Shown in pieces: positions 13,480 to 19,468 of a stretch of 41,023 nt of DNA. Position 1 is the stretch's first letter. Each line of letters opens with the position of its first letter. The notes under the pieces are model-generated. The model searched no databases. It was not told the origin of the DNA and saw only the letters and a program-made list of their open reading frames with translations. Origin of the DNA: Planctomycetaceae bacterium (lineage in GTDB: Bacteria; Planctomycetota; Planctomycetia; Planctomycetales; Planctomycetaceae); the NCBI GenBank assembly GCA_041745595.1, contig JBGTIR010000065.1, positions 1-41,023 of the forward strand. Direction: 5' to 3'. The position numbers were made by a program, and so were the translations under genes.

Positions 13480-14577
13480 ATGAAACGACGGGAATTCCTC
13501 CAGGGCGGATTAGCACTGACGCTCGGCAAATCGCTGCTGGCGGCACTGCCCGAGGAGCGTCTCGACAAAGCCGCGGCGGTTCTAGCCGAAGCCGTCCAGA
13601 GTGGGCAAGTCGCCTCGGCCGCGCTGACCGTGGTGCAGCAGGACGTCTCGTTCTCGCGTCATTTCGGAAAGGCTGCTTCCGACGACGCGATGTTTCTGCT
13701 CGGATCGATTTCGAAACCGATCTGCATCACGGCGTTGATGACGCTCTTCGATCGTGGTGAATTTCGACTCGACGATCGCTTGACCAGGTTTCTGCCGAAA
13801 TTTACCGGTGATGGACGAGACCGGGTCACGCTGCGACACTTGCTGACGCATGTCTCCGGGCTGCCGGATCAGTTGCCGGAGAACGAAACGCTGCGAAAAC
13901 GACACGCGGGTCTCGAAGAGTTCGTCGCCGGAGCCGTGCGCACGCCCCTGCACTTTGCGCCCGGTGCTCGATATCAATACTCCAGCATGGGAATCCTGCT
14001 GGCCACGCACGTCGCTGAATTGATCGGCGGAGTCGAGATTCGCGAATTCGTGGAGAAAGCCGTCTTTCAGCCGCTCAAGATGCGGCACTCGGCGCAGGGG
14101 CTGGGACGGTTTCAACTGGTTGATCTGGTGGCTTGTCAAACCGAACGGGCCGCACCCGAATCGGGAGCCGGCGACCCGACGGCGAAGGACTGGGACTGGA
14201 ACAGCGCCTACTGGCGCGGGCTCGGAGCTCCCTGGGGCGGCACGCATTGCTCCGCGCCGGACGTCGCGCGATTCCTGGCGGAATTCCTGCAGCAACGGGG
14301 CGACGTCGTCAAACCGGCAACCGCCAGGTTGATGATCGACAACCAGAACGGCAAAGACCTCACACCGCGAGGCCTGGGCTTCAACGTCGGCGCGACGGCA
14401 GGCAGCCCGGGGTGTTCGCAGAAAACCTTCGGACATACGGGATCGACCGGAACGATCGCCTGGGCGGATCCCGCGACGGAGACGATCTGCGTGGTCTTGA
14501 CGTCGCTCCCAGGACGAGCCGTCCAGCCGCACCCCCGCGAACTGGCCTCGGCGCACGTGGCCTCGCTCGAACGTTGA
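13480..14577 (+). CDS. serine hydrolase, beta-lactamase/transpeptidase-like family (Tat-secreted)
   Basis: Tat signal MKRREFLQGGLALTL. SxxK active-site motif (GSISKP), a Y-x-S/N-like motif (YQYSS) and an HTG-type KTG-equivalent (FGHTGSTG). Length is about 365 aa from ATG 13480. Confidence 0.8.
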   Translation: MKRREFLQGGLALTLGKSLLAALPEERLDKAAAVLAEAVQSGQVASAALTVVQQDVSFSRHFGKAASDDAMFLLGSISKPICITALMTLFDRGEFRLDDRLTRFLPKFTGDGRDRVTLRHLLTHVSGLPDQLPENETLRKRHAGLEEFVAGAVRTPLHFAPGARYQYSSMGILLATHVAELIGGVEIREFVEKAVFQPLKMRHSAQGLGRFQLVDLVACQTERAAPESGAGDPTAKDWDWNSAYWRGLGAPWGGTHCSAPDVARFLAEFLQQRGDVVKPATARLMIDNQNGKDLTPRGLGFNVGATAGSPGCSQKTFGHTGSTGTIAWADPATETICVVLTSLPGRAVQPHPRELASAHVASLER

Positions 14578-15088
14578 TCGGAATGCGTGCCCCGCGGCCG
14601 TTGTCGAACAGACCGCGAGGGCGACATGCACTCCTCCGTCGATAAAGCGATGGGCGATCTTCGCACCGGTTGTGAATCTCCGCGGCGGAGGCCGACTCGG
14701 CGAAATCCGCGGGCCGAATCCCCGGGAGGTGTCGTCACCCATGGCCGGGGTTGAGGCGACTCGCGAAAAAAACTCGACCTGACGGAAATTTCCGCGAACA
14801 TTTTCGAGCCGGCGCGCATCAGTTCTATGACCGGCGATGGCGGTCATCGCCGCCCAATAATCGTGACACGGATGATTTCACTTCAGCGATCCCGAAAATC
14901 ATGACGCTCCGACGGCTCCATCTCAGTTCCAAACGAAGCGATACGGTCCGTATCGCCGCGTACCTCATACGTCTCCAGATCCGGAATTATCGATTCGGAT
15001 CGGCGGGAAGTCTGGAACGGGGCGGCGAGAACTCCCCGTATCCCCTGCGCACGTGACATCGGCCACACGCCTCCGCGAGCTTTCCAAA

Positions 15089-15121
15089 GCCCGGTGTCAC
15101 GCAAAGGACGCCGGGCTTTTT
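15089..15121 (+). terminator. possible intrinsic terminator/insulator hairpin followed by T5, 33 nt upstream of the first tRNA
   Basis: GCCCGG(15089-15094) pairs with CCGGGC(15111-15116), with an inner GTC/GAC pairing, followed by TTTTT 15117-15121. The loop is larger than in a textbook terminator. Confidence 0.3.
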
Positions 15122-15154: not shown

Positions 15155-15226
15155 GGGCTGGTAGCTGAGACGGTTTAGCGCCTGGCTGAAGACCAGGAGA
15201 GAAGGATTCGAGCGCCTTCCAGCCCA
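15155..15226 (+). tRNA. tRNA-Phe (anticodon GAA)
   Basis: Acceptor GGGCTGG/CCAGCCC+A. D stem GCTG/TAGC with a GG-containing loop. Anticodon stem CCTGG/CCAGG, loop CTGAAGA (identical to the E. coli Phe loop). T arm AAGGA-TTCGAGC-GCCTT has one A:G mismatch at 53:61. No encoded CCA. Confidence 0.65.
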
Positions 15227-15273
15227 CTTTCCAAACCAGTGCATGACTGGAGACAGACAGCGTGCGCACACAG

Positions 15274-15346
15274 GGCCCGTTCGACTTCTCGTGAGGTTGC
15301 CGGTCTTTCAAGCCGGCCAGGTTGGGTTCGAATCCCACACGGGTCA
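15274..15346 (+). tRNA. tRNA-Glu (anticodon TTC)
   Basis: Acceptor GGCCCGT/ACGGGTC+A (G2:U71 wobble). Glu-like 3-bp D stem GAC/GTT with a GAGG-containing loop. Anticodon stem CCGGT/GCCGG, loop CTTTCAA. T loop TTCGAAT. Confidence 0.55.
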
Positions 15347-15511: not shown

Positions 15512-15583
15512 GGGGTCGTGGTGTAACGGCAGCACAGCGAGCTTTTACCTCGCCCGGTGGGGGTTCGAATCCCTCCGGCCCCA
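15512..15583 (+). tRNA. tRNA-Lys (anticodon TTT)
   Basis: Acceptor GGGGTCG/CGGCCCC+A. D stem GTGT/GCAC, loop AACGGCA. Anticodon stem GCGAG/CTCGC, loop CTTTTAC. T arm GGGGG-TTCGAAT-CCCTC. Confidence 0.75.
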
Positions 15584-15596
15584 TGGCGAGACACGC

Positions 15597-15669
15597 GGGA
15601 TCCAGGTGTTAGCGGCAGCACACTCGGTTCTTACCCGAGCGGGTGATGGTTCAAGTCCATCGGATCCCA
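15597..15669 (+). tRNA. tRNA-Lys (anticodon CTT)
   Basis: Acceptor GGGATCC/GGATCCC+A. D stem GTGT/GCAC. Anticodon stem CTCGG/CCGAG, loop TTCTTAC. T arm GATGG-TTCAAGT-CCATC. Only 13 nt after the previous tRNA. Confidence 0.75.
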
Positions 15670-15680
15670 CTCAATGTCAA

Positions 15681-15752
15681 GCACTGGTCGTTTCGCGGCC
15701 AAGACTCCGCACCCGTAATGCGGCAACGTGGGTTCGAGTCCCACCCGGTGCT
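15681..15752 (+). tRNA. tRNA-Thr (anticodon CGT), non-canonical C33
   Basis: Acceptor GCACTGG/CCGGTGC+T. D stem GTTT/AGAC, loop CGCGGCCA. Anticodon stem CCGCA/TGCGG, loop CCCGTAA (C at position 33 instead of the invariant U). T arm GTGGG-TTCGAGT-CCCAC. Confidence 0.55.
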
Positions 15753-15788
15753 CTGCACTGTGTTCTTTGACAATTCGACGGATGCAGC

Positions 15789-15859
15789 GCACCCATGACG
15801 TAGCGGCAGCGTACCGTCTCGCCAGGGCGGAGGTGCGGGTTCGACTCCCGCTGGGTGTT
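15789..15859 (+). tRNA. tRNA-Gly (anticodon GCC), non-canonical C33 and G1:U72
   Basis: Acceptor GCACCCA/TGGGTGT+T. D stem ACGT/GCGT, loop AGCGGCA. Anticodon stem CCGTC/GGCGG, loop TCGCCAG. T arm GCGGG-TTCGACT-CCCGC. Confidence 0.5.
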
Positions 15860-15924
15860 CTTCGTTGCGGTCAGCGATCAGCGGTCGGGAATCTTTTCGA
15901 TGGCGGACGGCGCCGAGCAAAACT

Positions 15925-15998
15925 CAGCGTGTGGGATAGTCTGGGAATCCGCGTGCCTCGGGCGCACGAGAGCGTCGGTTCAAATCCGACCACGCTGA
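15925..15998 (+). tRNA. tRNA-Pro (anticodon CGG)
   Basis: C1:G72 first pair, as is typical for bacterial tRNA-Pro (CAGCGTG/CACGCTG+A). D stem GGAT/ATCC. Perfect anticodon stem CGTGC/GCACG, loop CTCGGGC with G37. T arm GTCGG-TTCAAAT-CCGAC. Confidence 0.75.
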
Positions 15999-16010
15999 CT
16001 GAGGATTGTT

Positions 16011-16085
16011 TGCGGCGGATCCCGTGCTGGTACGGGAGGGCGACTGTTAATCGCCTCGGCGCAGGTTCGATTCCTGCCGCCGCAG
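16011..16085 (+). tRNA. tRNA-Asn (anticodon GTT)
   Basis: U1:A72 and discriminator G, as in bacterial tRNA-Asn (TGCGGCG/CGCCGCA+G). D stem TCCC/GGGA. Anticodon stem GGCGA/TCGCC, loop CTGTTAA (identical to the E. coli Asn loop). T arm GCAGG-TTCGATT-CCTGC. Only 12 nt after tRNA-Pro. Confidence 0.75.
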
Positions 16086-16095
16086 CTTGAATCAG

Positions 16096-16178
16096 GGAAG
16101 TCATCCGGCCGGATGAGGAGCCTGTCTCGAAAACAGGTGCGGGTTACACCGTTGTGGGTTCGAGTCCCACGGCTTCCG
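16096..16178 (+). tRNA. tRNA-Ser (anticodon CGA), long variable arm
   Basis: 83 nt. Acceptor GGAAGTC/GGCTTCC+G. Anticodon stem CCTGT/ACAGG, loop CTCGAAA (matches the E. coli Ser loop). About 16-nt variable arm. T arm GTGGG-TTCGAGT-CCCAC. 10 nt after tRNA-Asn. Confidence 0.7.
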
Positions 16179-16199
16179 CTGCTTGTGAACCAGTCTCAG

Positions 16200-16270
16200 G
16201 GGCTCATGGTCCAACAGAAAGACATCGGTCCTGCAAACCGAGGATTCGGGTGCGAGTCCCGATGAGTCCA
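16200..16270 (+). tRNA. tRNA-Ala (anticodon TGC), non-canonical (C33, T-loop TGCGAGT, no GG in D-loop) but with the G3:U70 Ala identity pair
   Basis: Acceptor GGGCTCA/TGAGTCC+A gives G3:U70. Anticodon stem TCGGT/ACCGA, loop CCTGCAA. T arm TCGGG-TGCGAGT-CCCGA. The D arm is short (GTC/GAC) and lacks G18G19. Confidence 0.5.
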
Positions 16271-16285
16271 CTTTCGATGCGAGTC

Positions 16286-16358
16286 GGTCCTGTCGCCCAG
16301 CGGCCAAGGCAGCTTCCTTACAAGAAGCAGATCGGTGGTTCGAGTCCACCCAGGACCA
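16286..16358 (+). tRNA. tRNA-Val (anticodon TAC)
   Basis: Acceptor GGTCCTG/CAGGACC+A. D loop AGCGGCCAA. Anticodon stem GCTTC/GAAGC, loop CTTACAA. T arm GGTGG-TTCGAGT-CCACC. Confidence 0.75.
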
Positions 16359-16444
16359 TTGCGGAATCGACTGTCTGTGTTCGTGATCGGAGACGAGGTT
16401 GAGAACGGATTCACGACGAACAATGGACGACTGACGAAGAACTC

Positions 16445-16519
16445 GTCCTCGCGGAGCAGTCCGGAGTGCTCGCCACCCTGTCACGGTGGAGATCGGGGGT
16501 TCAAATCCCCTCGGGGACG
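16445..16519 (+). tRNA. tRNA-Asp (anticodon GTC)
   Basis: Acceptor GTCCTCG/CGGGGAC+G. Perfect D stem GAGC/GCTC. Anticodon stem CCACC/GGTGG, loop CTGTCAC (identical to the E. coli Asp loop). T arm GGGGG-TTCAAAT-CCCCT. Confidence 0.7.
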
Positions 16520-16620
16520 CTTTTCACAACACGACCCGGTGCGAAATCCGCATAGGCAGCAAACACGCGGGCTGTCGTGATCGGGAAACTCGACCCTCGC
16601 TTGAGTCACTGACAACAGAC

Positions 16621-16702
16621 GCGTCGGCTGGGCATTGGCGAGCCCTCGGGGCCGTAACCCCCGCGCCGCGAGGCTGTGCAGGTTCAACTCCTGCTCGACG
16701 CA
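16621..16702 (+). tRNA. tRNA-Tyr (anticodon GTA), long variable arm, C33
   Basis: 82 nt. Acceptor GCGTCGG/TCGACGC+A. D stem GGGC/GCCC. Anticodon stem CGGGG/CCCCG, loop CCGTAAC. 14-nt variable arm with a GCC/GGC stem. T arm GCAGG-TTCAACT-CCTGC. Confidence 0.6.
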
Positions 16703-16784
16703 CTGGCAAGAGAAAGGCACGTCGCCCACGATCGGAGCTGACTTTCTGACGACGGACGATGTTTCACTTTCTCGCCACAGACGA

Positions 16785-16869
16785 GGCCAAGTGGTGCAAC
16801 CGGTAGACACGCGACGCTCAGAACGTCGTGCCCCTTGCGGGCTTGGGAGTTCGACTCTCCCCTTGGTCA
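16785..16869 (+). tRNA. tRNA-Leu (anticodon CAG), long variable arm
   Basis: 85 nt. Acceptor GGCCAAG/CTTGGTC+A. 3-bp D stem GTG/CAC. Anticodon stem CGACG/CGTCG, loop CTCAGAA. Variable arm with a GCCC/GGGC stem. T arm GGGAG-TTCGACT-CTCCC. Confidence 0.7.
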
Positions 16870-16889
16870 TTTGCCGATTGGAATTTCGA

Positions 16890-16958
16890 CGCGGGTGGGC
16901 CAGTGCCCATTGGAGCCTCATAAGCCTCGATCGCCGGGTGCGACACCCGGACCCGCCA
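16890..16958 (+). tRNA. tRNA-Met/Ile2-like (anticodon CAT), degenerate/non-canonical
   Basis: 69 nt. Six of seven acceptor pairs (CGCGGGT/ACCCGCC+A). Anticodon stem GGAGC/GCCTC with one A:C mismatch, loop CTCATAA. T arm CCGGG-TGCGACA-CCCGG. Compact D arm without GG. It shares the TGCGA T-loop/GG-less D-loop combination with the Ala tRNA. Confidence 0.35.
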
Positions 16959-17049: not shown

Positions 17050-17137
17050 GGAAGGTAGCCGGATACGGTTGGCCGGGCCGCATTGCTAATGCGGTTCTCC
17101 CGCAAGGGAGATGAGGGTTCGAATCCCTTGCCTTCCG
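17050..17137 (+). tRNA. tRNA-Ser (anticodon GCT), long variable arm
   Basis: 88 nt. Acceptor GGAAGGT/GCCTTCC+G. D stem CCGG/CCGG. Anticodon stem CCGCA/TGCGG, loop TTGCTAA. 18-nt variable arm with a CTCCC/GGGAG stem. T arm GAGGG-TTCGAAT-CCCTT. Confidence 0.7.
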
Positions 17138-17148
17138 CTGGAAAGAAG

Positions 17149-17376: not shown

Positions 17377-17446
17377 GCGAGCGTGCTCCTGGGAGAGTCA
17401 GCCGTCTCCAAAACTGCTGTATGAGGTTCGAATCCTCACGCTCGTG
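17377..17446 (+). tRNA. tRNA-Trp (anticodon CCA), short D arm, one anticodon-stem mismatch
   Basis: Acceptor GCGAGCG/CGCTCGT+G (G1:U72). Anticodon loop CTCCAAA (identical to the E. coli Trp loop), stem GCCGT/ACTGC with one mismatch. T arm TGAGG-TTCGAAT-CCTCA. 70 nt. Confidence 0.55.
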
Positions 17447-17709
17447 CTTGAGGAGCTCTCTGCCGTCAACGGGCGGCGTTCAGAAAGACTCTCCGATGGC
17501 GGCACGATACCCCGATGCGGTCGCGGGACGAACTCCTCCCCGGTTTCGAACGACCGCCTGTGTGCTTGCATCCGCGACACAGTTCGGCGGGGTACGAAAT
17601 CCTCGTTCCTGGAGTATGAGGGAGAGCATGCAACTCTGCGAAGACGAGCTGCTCTGATCTCTCCAAATTCCGCGAACCTCTCGATCGATTCTCCCGTCTC
17701 TTGTCTTCA

Positions 17710-17819: not shown

Positions 17820-17891
17820 GCTCGGTTCGCTCAATGGTAGAGCACCAGACGATCACTCTGGCTGTTGCGGGTTCGAGTCCCGCACCGACAC
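17820..17891 (+). pseudogene. degenerate tRNA-like element (canonical D and T arms, aberrant acceptor stem and anticodon loop)
   Basis: D arm GCTC-AATGGTA-GAGC and T arm GCGGG-TTCGAGT-CCCGC are canonical. Acceptor GCTCGGT versus ACCGACA pairs at only 5 of 7 positions. Anticodon stem CCAGA/TCTGG, loop CGATCAC (G33, A34). Confidence 0.4.
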
Positions 17892-18346
17892 GTCGGTGAT
17901 GAGCCGACTCCTGGACGCGTGCAAACGCATCCGTCAACGAAGCCCAAAGGAGGCAGAGGTTTGTTCGATCAGCCGTCGTTCGGCGGTGAGCCGCAGAGCC
18001 GGTGGGCGTCAGCTCCCGGACTTCTCGCCGGCCCACGCCGTCGACGGCAGCACGCGGAGACGCCCTGTAGTGCGTCGAGACCGCGAGCGCAGCGGGAAGC
18101 CGGAGAGCGGGCGGGTGGAACGCAACGTCGCGCAGGCACAGCGTGCCGGCGTGCGTTGCCCCGCGCCGCTCAATGACTTTCCACGCGCCCGCGGAAGCGC
18201 ACTCCGCGATCGTCGTGTGTGATCGGCAAATGCTCTGCCTTCGGAGGGCGTTTATCGAAATATGATCGCGGCGATGACGCCGTGTGTATTGCCTCCGCAT
18301 CAGACGGAGGCTGGTTGTCCGCAGCAGGACTCCTGAGAGGTGAGCG

Positions 18347-19468
18347 ATGTTGATGTTCAAGCGTTTCAAAATCCGCAGCTACGAAATGGGACTGCTGTTC
18401 CGGGACGATGAGTTCCGCGGACTGGTCGAGGCCGGCACGTGCTGGTTCTTCGATCCGCTGCACAAGGTCAAGCTCGACGTCGTTTCGCAGCGCGACCCGT
18501 GGCTGATGCACGAGCAGCTCGACTTGATCGTCAAGTCGGGGGCGCTCGAGAACCGCGCCGTCGTGCTGGACCTGAAGGATCACGAGCGGGCCCTGGTCTG
18601 GATCGAAAACCGCTTCAGTCACGTCCTGCCGGCCGGACTGTACGCCTACTGGACGGGTCAGAAGCACGTCCGCGTCGAGGTGATCGACGCCCGCAACGTG
18701 CGGTTCGTTCACGACGAGCTGAAGCTCATCGCCCGTTCGCCGATGGTGCAGCGCGTCCTGGACGTCTGCTCGGTCGAGCGCGATCGCGTCGGCGTCCTGT
18801 TCATTGACGGCCGCTTCGTCGAGACCCTGGCGCCGGGGCTGTATGCCTTCTGGAAGGGACAGTCGGACGCCCGGATCGTCGAGATCGACCTGCGCGAAAC
18901 GATGGTCGACGTCGGCGGTCAGGACATCATGACGGCCGACAAGGTGACGCTGCGGCTCAACGCCGTCGTGACCTACAAGATCGTCGACGCCCGCAAGGCG
19001 GTCAGCCAGACGGACGACGTGCGGCAGGCGCTGTACCGCGAAACGCAGTTGGTGCTGCGCGGCGTGGTCGGCGTCCGGGATCTCGACGTCTTCCTGACGG
19101 AGAAGGATGCCGTGGCGCAGGAGCTCGAAGAGAACGTCCGCCGACGGGCGAACGAGCTGGGTCTGGAAATCGCCTCGGTCGGGATCCGCGACGTGATCCT
19201 GCCGGGTGAAATGAAGGAGCTGATGAACAAGGTCACGGAGGCCAAAAAGGCCGCCGAGGCCAACCTGATCGCCCGCCGCGAGGAGACGGCCGCCATGCGG
19301 TCGCAGGCCAACACGGCCAAACTGCTGGCGGACAATCCGGTCCTGATGCGGCTGCGGGAACTGGAAGTTCTCGAAAAGGTCGCCGCCGCGGGGAAGCTCA
19401 ATATCGTGCTGGGCGAAAAGAACCCGGGCGAGAAGGGGCTGGCCGACAAGGTGGTCAACCTGCTGTAA
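18347..19468 (+). CDS. SPFH/band-7 (stomatin/prohibitin/flotillin/HflK-C) domain protein
   Basis: 373 aa. Conserved SPFH core (GQDIMTADKVTLRLNAVVTYKIVDARKAV...) followed by a charged coiled-coil C-terminus (KKAAEANLIARREETAAMRSQANTAKLLA). GAGAGG RBS before ATG 18347. Confidence 0.85.
   Translation: MLMFKRFKIRSYEMGLLFRDDEFRGLVEAGTCWFFDPLHKVKLDVVSQRDPWLMHEQLDLIVKSGALENRAVVLDLKDHERALVWIENRFSHVLPAGLYAYWTGQKHVRVEVIDARNVRFVHDELKLIARSPMVQRVLDVCSVERDRVGVLFIDGRFVETLAPGLYAFWKGQSDARIVEIDLRETMVDVGGQDIMTADKVTLRLNAVVTYKIVDARKAVSQTDDVRQALYRETQLVLRGVVGVRDLDVFLTEKDAVAQELEENVRRRANELGLEIASVGIRDVILPGEMKELMNKVTEAKKAAEANLIARREETAAMRSQANTAKLLADNPVLMRLRELEVLEKVAAAGKLNIVLGEKNPGEKGLADKVVNLL

Follow-up and report, generated by a model that had tools for sequence, protein, structure and literature searches.

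Can a transfer RNA (tRNA) gene give up nucleotides that are regarded as invariant and still encode a molecule that is charged and decodes, or are such losses the first signs of damage? This question is raised by a dense run of tRNA genes on contig JBGTIR010000065.1 of a Planctomycetaceae bacterium (NCBI GenBank assembly GCA_041745595.1), analysed here as a stretch of 41,023 nucleotides (nt) that we call the window. The original prediction, made from the letters of the DNA, had noticed C in place of U33 in four of these tRNAs, a G55-containing T-loop together with a D-loop without G18G19 in two of them, and a D arm shared by five. By comparing the run with its relatives in other genomes, we have come to regard it as a long tRNA array that is probably functional as an auxiliary set, with compensated swaps of tertiary pairs and a conditionally tolerated C33. 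Its oddities are most likely inherited and structurally accommodated variants and not damage.

Cytidine at position 33 in the window and its relatives

ARAGORN at its default settings finds 19 tRNA genes on the + strand of the window, and a Met-like gene comes in addition. In these folds the anticodon loops of tRNA-Thr-CGU (CCCGTAA), Gly-GCC (TCGCCAG), Ala-UGC (CCTGCAA) and Tyr-GUA (CCGTAAC) hold C at position 33, and Infernal alignments to the Rfam tRNA model RF00005 place the identical C under the consensus U33, with scores (45.0 bits for Thr, 50.7 for Gly, 51.9 for Ala and 36.6 for Tyr) that exceed the gathering score of 29 bits. The two programs thus agree with the first description of these loops. 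None of the four contains a U that another register could place at 33, and the register of Ala is fixed independently by its G3:U70 identity pair. Base-calling error is excluded because the closest orthologues of the C33 genes, 88–99% identical and taken from independent assemblies, share the same C33. That sequencing errors or a wrong fold created these features therefore has a practically negligible probability, as two independent methods give the same register and the same nucleotides recur in about 100 independent assemblies. Elongator tRNAs are said to have an invariant U33 (PMC5041475); its absence from the four genes, out of 19 in the window, is far outside that expectation. ARAGORN also places G33 in the last gene of the array.

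No array was found beside homologues of the serine-hydrolase gene that lies upstream of the window array, among the long contigs checked, and therefore a DNA anchor was used instead of flank-based orthology. One genome per species was scanned with a 28-nt pattern that avoids every disputed position and was drawn from the array Ile/Lys genes, namely from their D arm and anticodon loop. The scan returned 108 loci (cited below by numbers with the letter L), nearly all from Planctomycetota; the carriers are assemblies of Planctomycetaceae, Schlesneria, Planctomicrobium, Fuerstiella, Isosphaeraceae and Pirellulaceae, including one complete genome, that of Schlesneria sp. T3-172 (NZ_CP172346.1, with the array at about 824–832 kb), and the 108 matches do not include the source genome. 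Nearly all of these loci share one tRNA operon, of up to 43 genes, with the same gene order (Phe-Glu-Pro-Ile-Lys-Ile-Lys-Thr-Gly-Pro-Asn-Ser-Gly-Gln-Gln-Ser-Ala-Val-...), and the window array is 70–97% identical to its relatives gene by gene. Same-anticodon orthologues over at least 50 nt were found for all window tRNAs but two: the terminal tRNA-like gene, and His, whose similarity to other His(GUG) genes extends over 48 nt only. A long tRNA operon with conserved gene order is thus widespread in Planctomycetia, and the segment 15155–17891 of the window is one reduced copy of it, with 19–21 genes.

C33 is found in 259 of the 1769 array tRNAs of this family that have a pyrimidine at position 33, and a purine stands there in only 11 genes. 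Its frequency differs with the first letter of the codon: 127/428 for G, 61/414 for C, 13/318 for U and 7/500 for A other than Thr (ACN), which itself reaches 51/109 (47%). High proportions are seen in Leu-GAG (26/29) and Glu-CUC (27/37), and Tyr stands at 24%, while C33 is never seen in Lys (0/175), Phe (0/70), Leu-UUR (0/68), Trp or Cys. Parsimony requires no change at position 33 in Lys-CUU, Phe, Leu-CAA/CAG/UAA/UAG, Trp, Cys and Arg-UCU, and none to C in Lys-UUU. Stem mismatches are not raised in C33 genes (0.42, vs 0.61 in U33 genes), and the conserved loop nucleotides are alike in both. Position 33 apparently behaves as a site where a pyrimidine is required and U is required only for some codons. 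This pattern fits the report that U33 contacts weigh most for weak, A/U-rich codon-anticodon pairs (PMC5041475), and also a finding on N6-threonylcarbamoyladenosine at position 37 (t6A37), whose synthesis in Escherichia coli does not accept a U33C tRNA as substrate (PMC8887486).

C33 may then be a nearly neutral pyrimidine swap that has flipped repeatedly between U and C in the readers of G- and C-first codons, in Thr and in some Tyr, and it would be kept out of tRNAs for A/U-rich codons, where the U-turn and the hypermodification of A37 matter most. A working tRNA with C33 is known in the cytoplasmic initiator tRNA-Met of multicellular eukaryotes (PMC5041475, PMC8887486); in the planctomycete arrays, by contrast, C33 is polymorphic and not fixed, and the tRNAs that carry it are bacterial ones of elongator type (Thr, Gly, Ala, Val, Glu, Leu, Pro and Tyr).

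Swapped pairs at the elbow and in the core

The second departure concerns the contact of the D-loop with the T-loop. In the Ala gene the T-loop reads TGCGAGT and the D-loop CAACAGAAA, whose CAG is aligned by Infernal under the consensus UGG, so that G18 is changed to A18 and G19 is kept. The Met-like gene has the T-loop TGCGACA, with G at 16940, and the D tetraloop CAGT (16901–16904). Both genes carry A18 G19 with G55 C56 in place of the canonical G18G19/U55C56, and the co-occurrence of G55 with a GG-less D-loop is confirmed by ARAGORN and Infernal for Ala and by ARAGORN at a lowered threshold for the Met-like gene. The other 17 canonical window genes carry TTC, among them Glu-UUC, whose D-loop lacks GG as ARAGORN parses it.

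The original prediction had proposed that the two sides of this contact covary, and the family bears this out. G55 occurs in 51 of 1780 array tRNAs; none of them has GG unless an A precedes it, and 50 of the 51 have AG there, compared with GG in 1658 of the 1728 U55 tRNAs (Fisher p ~1e-65, uncorrected for ancestry). The G55 genes sit in three unrelated lineages, namely the first Ala slot, Thr-UGU and Met-2, the family of the Met-like gene. Among Ala paralogues, CAACAGGAA goes with UGCGA and CAACGGGAA with UUCGA; similarly, GG is found with TTC in Met-2 of L069 and L012 and in Thr-UGU of L015, and AG with TGC in their orthologues. A18 with U55 is limited to a few singletons, and G18 never occurs with G55 in the family. 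Both sides of the 18:55 pair change and revert together within lineages, A18-G55 replacing G18-U55. Such an A18-G55 contact would take the place of that between G18 and pseudouridine 55 (psi55) at the elbow, with G19:C56 kept, and G55-C56-G57-A58 could make the same backbone turn as U55 does, like the G of a GNRA loop. An independent case of the A18/G55 type is present outside the family, in the Anabaena trn operon (Nostoc sp. PCC 7120 plasmid delta), whose Glu-CUC gene (L118:3007-3084) pairs the T-loop TGCAACT with the GG-less D-loop AAATAAGATAA. Of the tRNAs of that array, 23 of 26 are reported as charged in vivo (PMC8421152).

Further tertiary pairs are swapped in the family. A8:U14 replaces U8:A14 in 91 genes, including the Lys-CUU gene of the window, and it characterizes 66 of 70 Lys-CUU and all 21 Thr-GGU genes; G8:G14 is seen in Arg-GCG and Arg-UCG, and C8 in many Asp genes. 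A54:U58 is found in the Met-1 family, and this 54:58 swap is less clean than those at 18:55 and 8:14. Met-1 is a second CAU family that is absent from the window (e.g., L030:4002-4071 and L042:7262-7330), with a U1:A72 pair and the T-loops ATCGTTA or ATCGATA, which means A54 with U58 or A58, plus A60. A54 and A60 in the T-loop are marks of eukaryotic initiators, of which Met-1 is reminiscent.

Working tRNAs, decay or repurposing

Whether these genes still give rise to working tRNAs can be approached through their stems and identity elements. In the alignment of the Thr-CGU family pairing is kept in 97.8% of cells, and both partners have changed in 9 of 21 pairs; for Met-2 the values are 94.4% and 10 of 22, with the D stem 100% paired; in both families none of 500 shuffles reaches the observed pairing and covariation, and slid controls give 21–49% pairing. 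The G3:U70 identity pair is present in 69 of 71 Ala genes, compared with 12 of 1586 (0.8%) at that pair in other tRNAs, and none of the 25 Ala genes with C33 or of the 21 with G55 lacks it. Other identity elements are retained as well, with G-1/C73 in 24 of 27 His genes, G73 in 49 of 49 Asp genes and A73 in 93 of 93 Lys-UUU genes, and the window has Ala G3:U70, His G-1/C73, Asp G73, Gly U73 and, in Tyr, A73 together with a long variable arm. An encoded CCA is absent from 99% of array genes. The loss of pairing, identity elements and conservation by which tRNA pseudogenes are recognized is not seen. Taken as a whole, the comparative evidence from stem covariation, kept identity elements and a codon-specific position 33 favours tRNAs that would still be charged and take part in decoding.

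This evidence has to be set against decay, in which silent, dispensable arrays would be drifting to pseudogenes, with C33 and G55 as damage accumulated in a G+C-rich genome. Decay would explain why the window holds 19–21 of up to 43 genes and has private defects unseen in orthologues (A14C in Thr-CGU at 15694, and a mismatched A.C pair at 16914/16926 in the Met-like gene's anticodon stem), why U33 and C33 flip so frequently, even between copies of one genome, and why the window tRNA genes have modest Rfam scores (33–60 bits to RF00005). Expression of long arrays is also poor in other bacteria, and 3 of the 26 Anabaena genes, which the text does not name, are pseudogenes (PMC8421152). Nevertheless we consider decay quite improbable, as the stems covary, G55 never occurs without A18, C33 genes are no more mismatched than U33 genes, and position 33 is restricted to pyrimidines in a codon-class-dependent manner. 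Identity elements are kept beyond structural need, the G3:U70 wobble in 97% of Ala genes being an example. There are also no recognizable tRNA remnants in the spacers: when the window's ten spacers and the stretch following the array were compared by BLAST with all family tRNAs, no match appeared at E<0.01, and we do not claim the gaps as decayed tRNAs.

The Met-like gene needs separate consideration. It is missed by ARAGORN at the default threshold and called at a lowered one, and RF00005 gives no match to it even at E<=10. It has a 4-base-pair (bp) D stem (GGGC/GCCC) and a C1xC72 mismatch, and its place in the operon, next after Leu-CAG, is the one that its orthologues take in the other arrays. 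Position 1:72 is unpaired in 20 of 21 Met-2 members, and the CAU anticodon and its loop are nearly invariant. Because its stems covary and the 1:72 mismatch is conserved, it is evidently a real, constrained tRNA-like gene despite its failure with RF00005. The 1:72 mismatch is a trait of the initiator tRNA-fMet. An assignment as bacterial initiator was rejected, as the three G:C pairs 29–31:39–41 are absent, the window stem being GGAGC/GCCTC and that of the family varying (GAAGC/GCTTC and others). The D hairpin (..CCAGUGC..) and the T-arm (GGGUGC.AC.CCC) recall the tymovirus tRNA-like structure RF00233, and this candidate was also rejected, with 23.7 bits against a gathering score of 40; unlike RF00233, the Met-like gene lacks a pseudoknotted acceptor, folds as a cloverleaf whose anticodon is CAU, and sits in a bacterial operon slot. 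In some Met-2 genes (L044:3621-3706, L039:4472-4556 and L111:4130-4214) an insertion of about 17 nt replaces the anticodon-loop region. As for the terminal tRNA-like gene of the window, its three known orthologous copies (window, L006:130-420 and L079:2280-2570) share the body and an upstream block of about 80 nt, and have wholly different anticodon loops (CGATCAC, TTATGGA and TTTGAAC). A strong ribosome-binding site, AAGGAGG, lies downstream of this gene at 17948.

It could be supposed that the deviant members, above all the Met-like and terminal genes, have been repurposed into non-decoding tRNA-like RNAs, such as regulators, processing signals or donors of amino acids for non-ribosomal use. 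The failure with RF00005, the minimal D arm and the conserved 1:72 mismatch of the Met-like gene point in this direction, as does a terminal gene whose body is conserved and anticodon loop is not. We think repurposing very unlikely all the same, given the nearly invariant CAU loop of Met-2 and the anticodons and identity elements retained by Ala, Thr, Gly and Tyr, and the codon-class dependence of C33 only makes sense with decoding under selection.

There are several points that weigh against a functional array. The rules proposed for position 33 have exceptions, as Thr contradicts the t6A rule and Tyr the weak-codon rule, and the isoacceptor-specificity statistics take no account of shared ancestry beyond a rough parsimony count, in which position 33 needs about 87 changes. 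The same isoacceptor can have U33 in one array copy and C33 in another within a single genome, which fits weak selection as well as it fits tolerance. The geometry of the A18-G55 contact is a putative one. The term auxiliary derives from an incomplete gene set, the window array having no Gln, Cys, Arg or elongator-Met gene, and from the long-array literature. Finally, the window copy is itself reduced and blemished, by the Thr A14C change, the A.C mismatch of the Met-like gene and G33 in the last gene.

Organization, control and history of the arrays

The features of the window array are collected in Table 1. The 19 genes called by ARAGORN, in the order given there, and the Met-like gene stand in the same orientation on one strand within 2.7 kb, as is usual for long tRNA arrays, with spacers of 9–180 nt and 372 nt ahead of the last gene; the G+C content is 60–68%.

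Table 1. Leader elements and tRNA genes of the window array.
Feature	Position	Strand	Remark
Conserved leader motif CTGCGCACGTGACATCGGCC	15045..15064	+	conserved upstream of arrays
Leader hairpin AAGCCCGGTGTC / GACGCCGGGCTT + T run	15087..15121	+	34 nt before first tRNA
tRNA-Phe(GAA), U33	15155..15227	+	100% identical orthologue in L110
tRNA-Glu(UUC), U33, U14, D-loop without GG as ARAGORN parses it	15274..15346	+	
tRNA-Ile(GAU), short D-loop AACGGAA	15379..15450	+	
tRNA-Lys(UUU)	15512..15583	+	
tRNA-Lys(CUU), swapped tertiary pair A8:U14	15597..15670	+	
tRNA-Thr(CGU), C33 = 15713, private A14C at 15694	15681..15753	+	
tRNA-Gly(GCC), C33 = 15820, loop TCGCCAG	15789..15860	+	
tRNA-Pro(CGG)	15925..15999	+	
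tRNA-Asn(GUU)	16011..16086	+	
tRNA-Ser(CGA), class II	16096..16179	+	
tRNA-Ala(UGC), C33 = 16231, A18/G19 = 16216/16217, G55 = 16252, G3:U70	16200..16271	+	
tRNA-Val(UAC)	16286..16358	+	
tRNA-Asp(GUC), C8	16445..16520	+	
tRNA-Tyr(GUA), class II, C33 = 16653	16621..16703	+	
tRNA-Leu(CAG)	16785..16869	+	
Met-like tRNA(CAU), Met-2 family	16890..16958	+	ARAGORN at lowered threshold
tRNA-Ser(GCU), class II	17050..17138	+	
tRNA-His(GUG), encoded G-1 and C73	17229..17303	+	
tRNA-Trp(CCA)	17377..17447	+	
Terminal tRNA-like gene (ARAGORN Asp-AUC, G33)	17820..17891	+	

Genes typical of a planctomycete chromosome flank the array; they encode a DUF1559-domain Ser/Thr kinase, a WD40 protein, a serine hydrolase (gene end at 14577) and a DUF7133-HEAT-cytochrome c protein. 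An SPFH/Band-7 gene lies 3' of the array (18347–19468) and is also found downstream in at least eight other loci, with 66–82% amino-acid identity; the upstream flank is not conserved. Several genomes have two or three copies of the array (L039/L069/L111, L026/L054/L092 and L015/L098). The sole clear stand-alone tRNA gene in the fetched blocks is a canonical initiator in L082.

Long tRNA arrays have been surveyed before, and some of them lie in Planctomycetes (PMC8421152, PMC4758250). The experimentally studied one of Anabaena (PCC 7120) resembles the planctomycete arrays in being a dense same-strand run, with short spacers, of 20–43 tRNA genes that supply redundant isoacceptors (PMC8421152; PMC4758250). 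Long arrays are further marked by patchy distribution and horizontal spread (PMC8421152); in the planctomycete family the upstream flank varies and several copies can occur per genome, but the downstream SPFH gene is shared by at least eight loci and the family is confined to Planctomycetota. A single family comprising both was nevertheless rejected, as their gene order differs entirely. The planctomycete arrays are, unlike that of Anabaena, chromosomal, often present in two or three copies per genome, equipped with a conserved leader of their own and in part followed by the SPFH gene, and no homing-endonuclease gene was seen adjoining the array in the window. The suggestion that such deviations are characteristic of array tRNAs in general holds in part: C33 is typical of the planctomycete family, but the Anabaena array has none (0/24), though it does contain the one G55 gene without GG. 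The array type is thus known, and codon-dependent C33 and compensated swaps of invariant pairs appear to be new, as we found no published description of either.

Upstream of tRNA-Phe in L005–L111 there is a conserved leader, in which the motif (C/T)TGCGC-NN-GTGACA-N-C-N-GGCC precedes, by about 25 nt, a 12-bp hairpin GCCCGGTGTC/GACACCGGGC and a T run. The hairpin is present in 64 of 69 arrays, 3 pairs of its 12-bp consensus show compensatory changes, and the leader has no match in Rfam. The hairpin looks like an intrinsic terminator. As the T run ends a few bases before tRNA-Phe in many loci, the polymerase has to pass it for the array to be transcribed. The upstream motif is similar to the hairpin's 3' arm, and it could be an antiterminator strand that pairs with the 5' arm; alternatively it could be a promoter element with GTGACA as the -35 box. 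A consensus scan of the leader found no sigma-70 promoter. Long arrays are described as silent by default and induced under translational stress (PMC8421152), and the terminator-like leader is the one hint of such behaviour here. The array genes would be co-transcribed through this leader and its terminator-like hairpin, the transcript would be cut into tRNAs, CCA would be added post-transcriptionally, and ordinary synthetases would charge the products, which may then serve as an auxiliary decoding set.

A more adaptive role can be imagined, in which the arrays form a disguised back-up set whose universal nucleotides (U8, G18, U33, T54 and U55) have been changed to escape toxins, phage-defence nucleases or modification-dependent attack, and which the leader switches on when the normal tRNAs are hit. 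Several invariant positions are indeed replaced coordinately with the structure preserved, many genomes have two or three array copies, and the conserved leader with its terminator-like hairpin would provide a switch. There is precedent in accessory tRNAs of phages that resist anticodon nucleases through loop changes (PMC10264068), and translational stress induces the Anabaena array (PMC8421152). We hold this role doubtful, because the classic nuclease targets (Lys, Asn, Asp, His and Arg) are precisely the tRNAs that retain U33 here, C33 flips back and forth in a near-neutral manner, and U33C was without effect on cleavage by the gamma-toxin of Kluyveromyces lactis, the one anticodon nuclease for which we found data (PMC2275089). 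No toxin or defence gene was found among the genes flanking the window array. Compared with the phage tRNAs, which are likewise accessory sets with loops off the host norm (PMC10264068), the planctomycete tRNAs that have changed are not known nuclease targets, and their elbow and core are altered as well. The anchor scan of IMG/VR did not find the array family on viral contigs; it returned four phage tRNA clusters with different order and content, and a viral origin was rejected. A related and similarly unlikely idea is that of an orthogonal reserve set, with swaps at U8:A14, G18:U55, U33 and T54:A58 and a leader attenuator that would open when translation fails, in which C33 tRNAs such as Thr-CGU would decode without t6A37.

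With regard to the history of the array, the original prediction had seen a near-identical D arm in the Ile, both Lys, Gly and His genes as a sign of duplication within the array followed by anticodon remoulding. The D arms of Ile (GTGT-AACGGAA-GCAC), Lys-UUU (GTGT-AACGGCA-GCAC) and Lys-CUU (GTGT-TAGCGGCA-GCAC) do agree, but His shares only the stem and Gly only the loop. The five genes have a mean mutual identity of 64%, vs 58% for other pairs, and each has its own same-anticodon orthologues in other arrays. This does not support a recent duplication, and any such event must be older than the family. Anticodon shifts do occur occasionally in the family. In related loci (L110, L087, L052 and others) single-base shifts are seen on conserved scaffolds: AUU stands on a body of the Lys-UUU type, AAC on one of Pro, GCU on one of Gly-GCC, GUA on one of Phe, and UUG or ACC on one of Thr-UGU, and UGC or CGC occurs in the first Ala slot.

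Long tRNA arrays are common and order-conserved in Planctomycetia and have their own conserved leader, which bears on how such arrays are controlled. U33 and G18-psi55 are textbook invariants, and yet every seventh of the roughly 1800 related bacterial tRNA genes found here carries C33, with a distribution that tracks the codon table. These features can be tested in culturable carriers. If the arrays are active, they would reveal which of the invariants are truly required and for which codons, and they would be natural test cases for how U33 relates to the modification of A37, as well as new scaffolds for engineered or orthogonal tRNAs.

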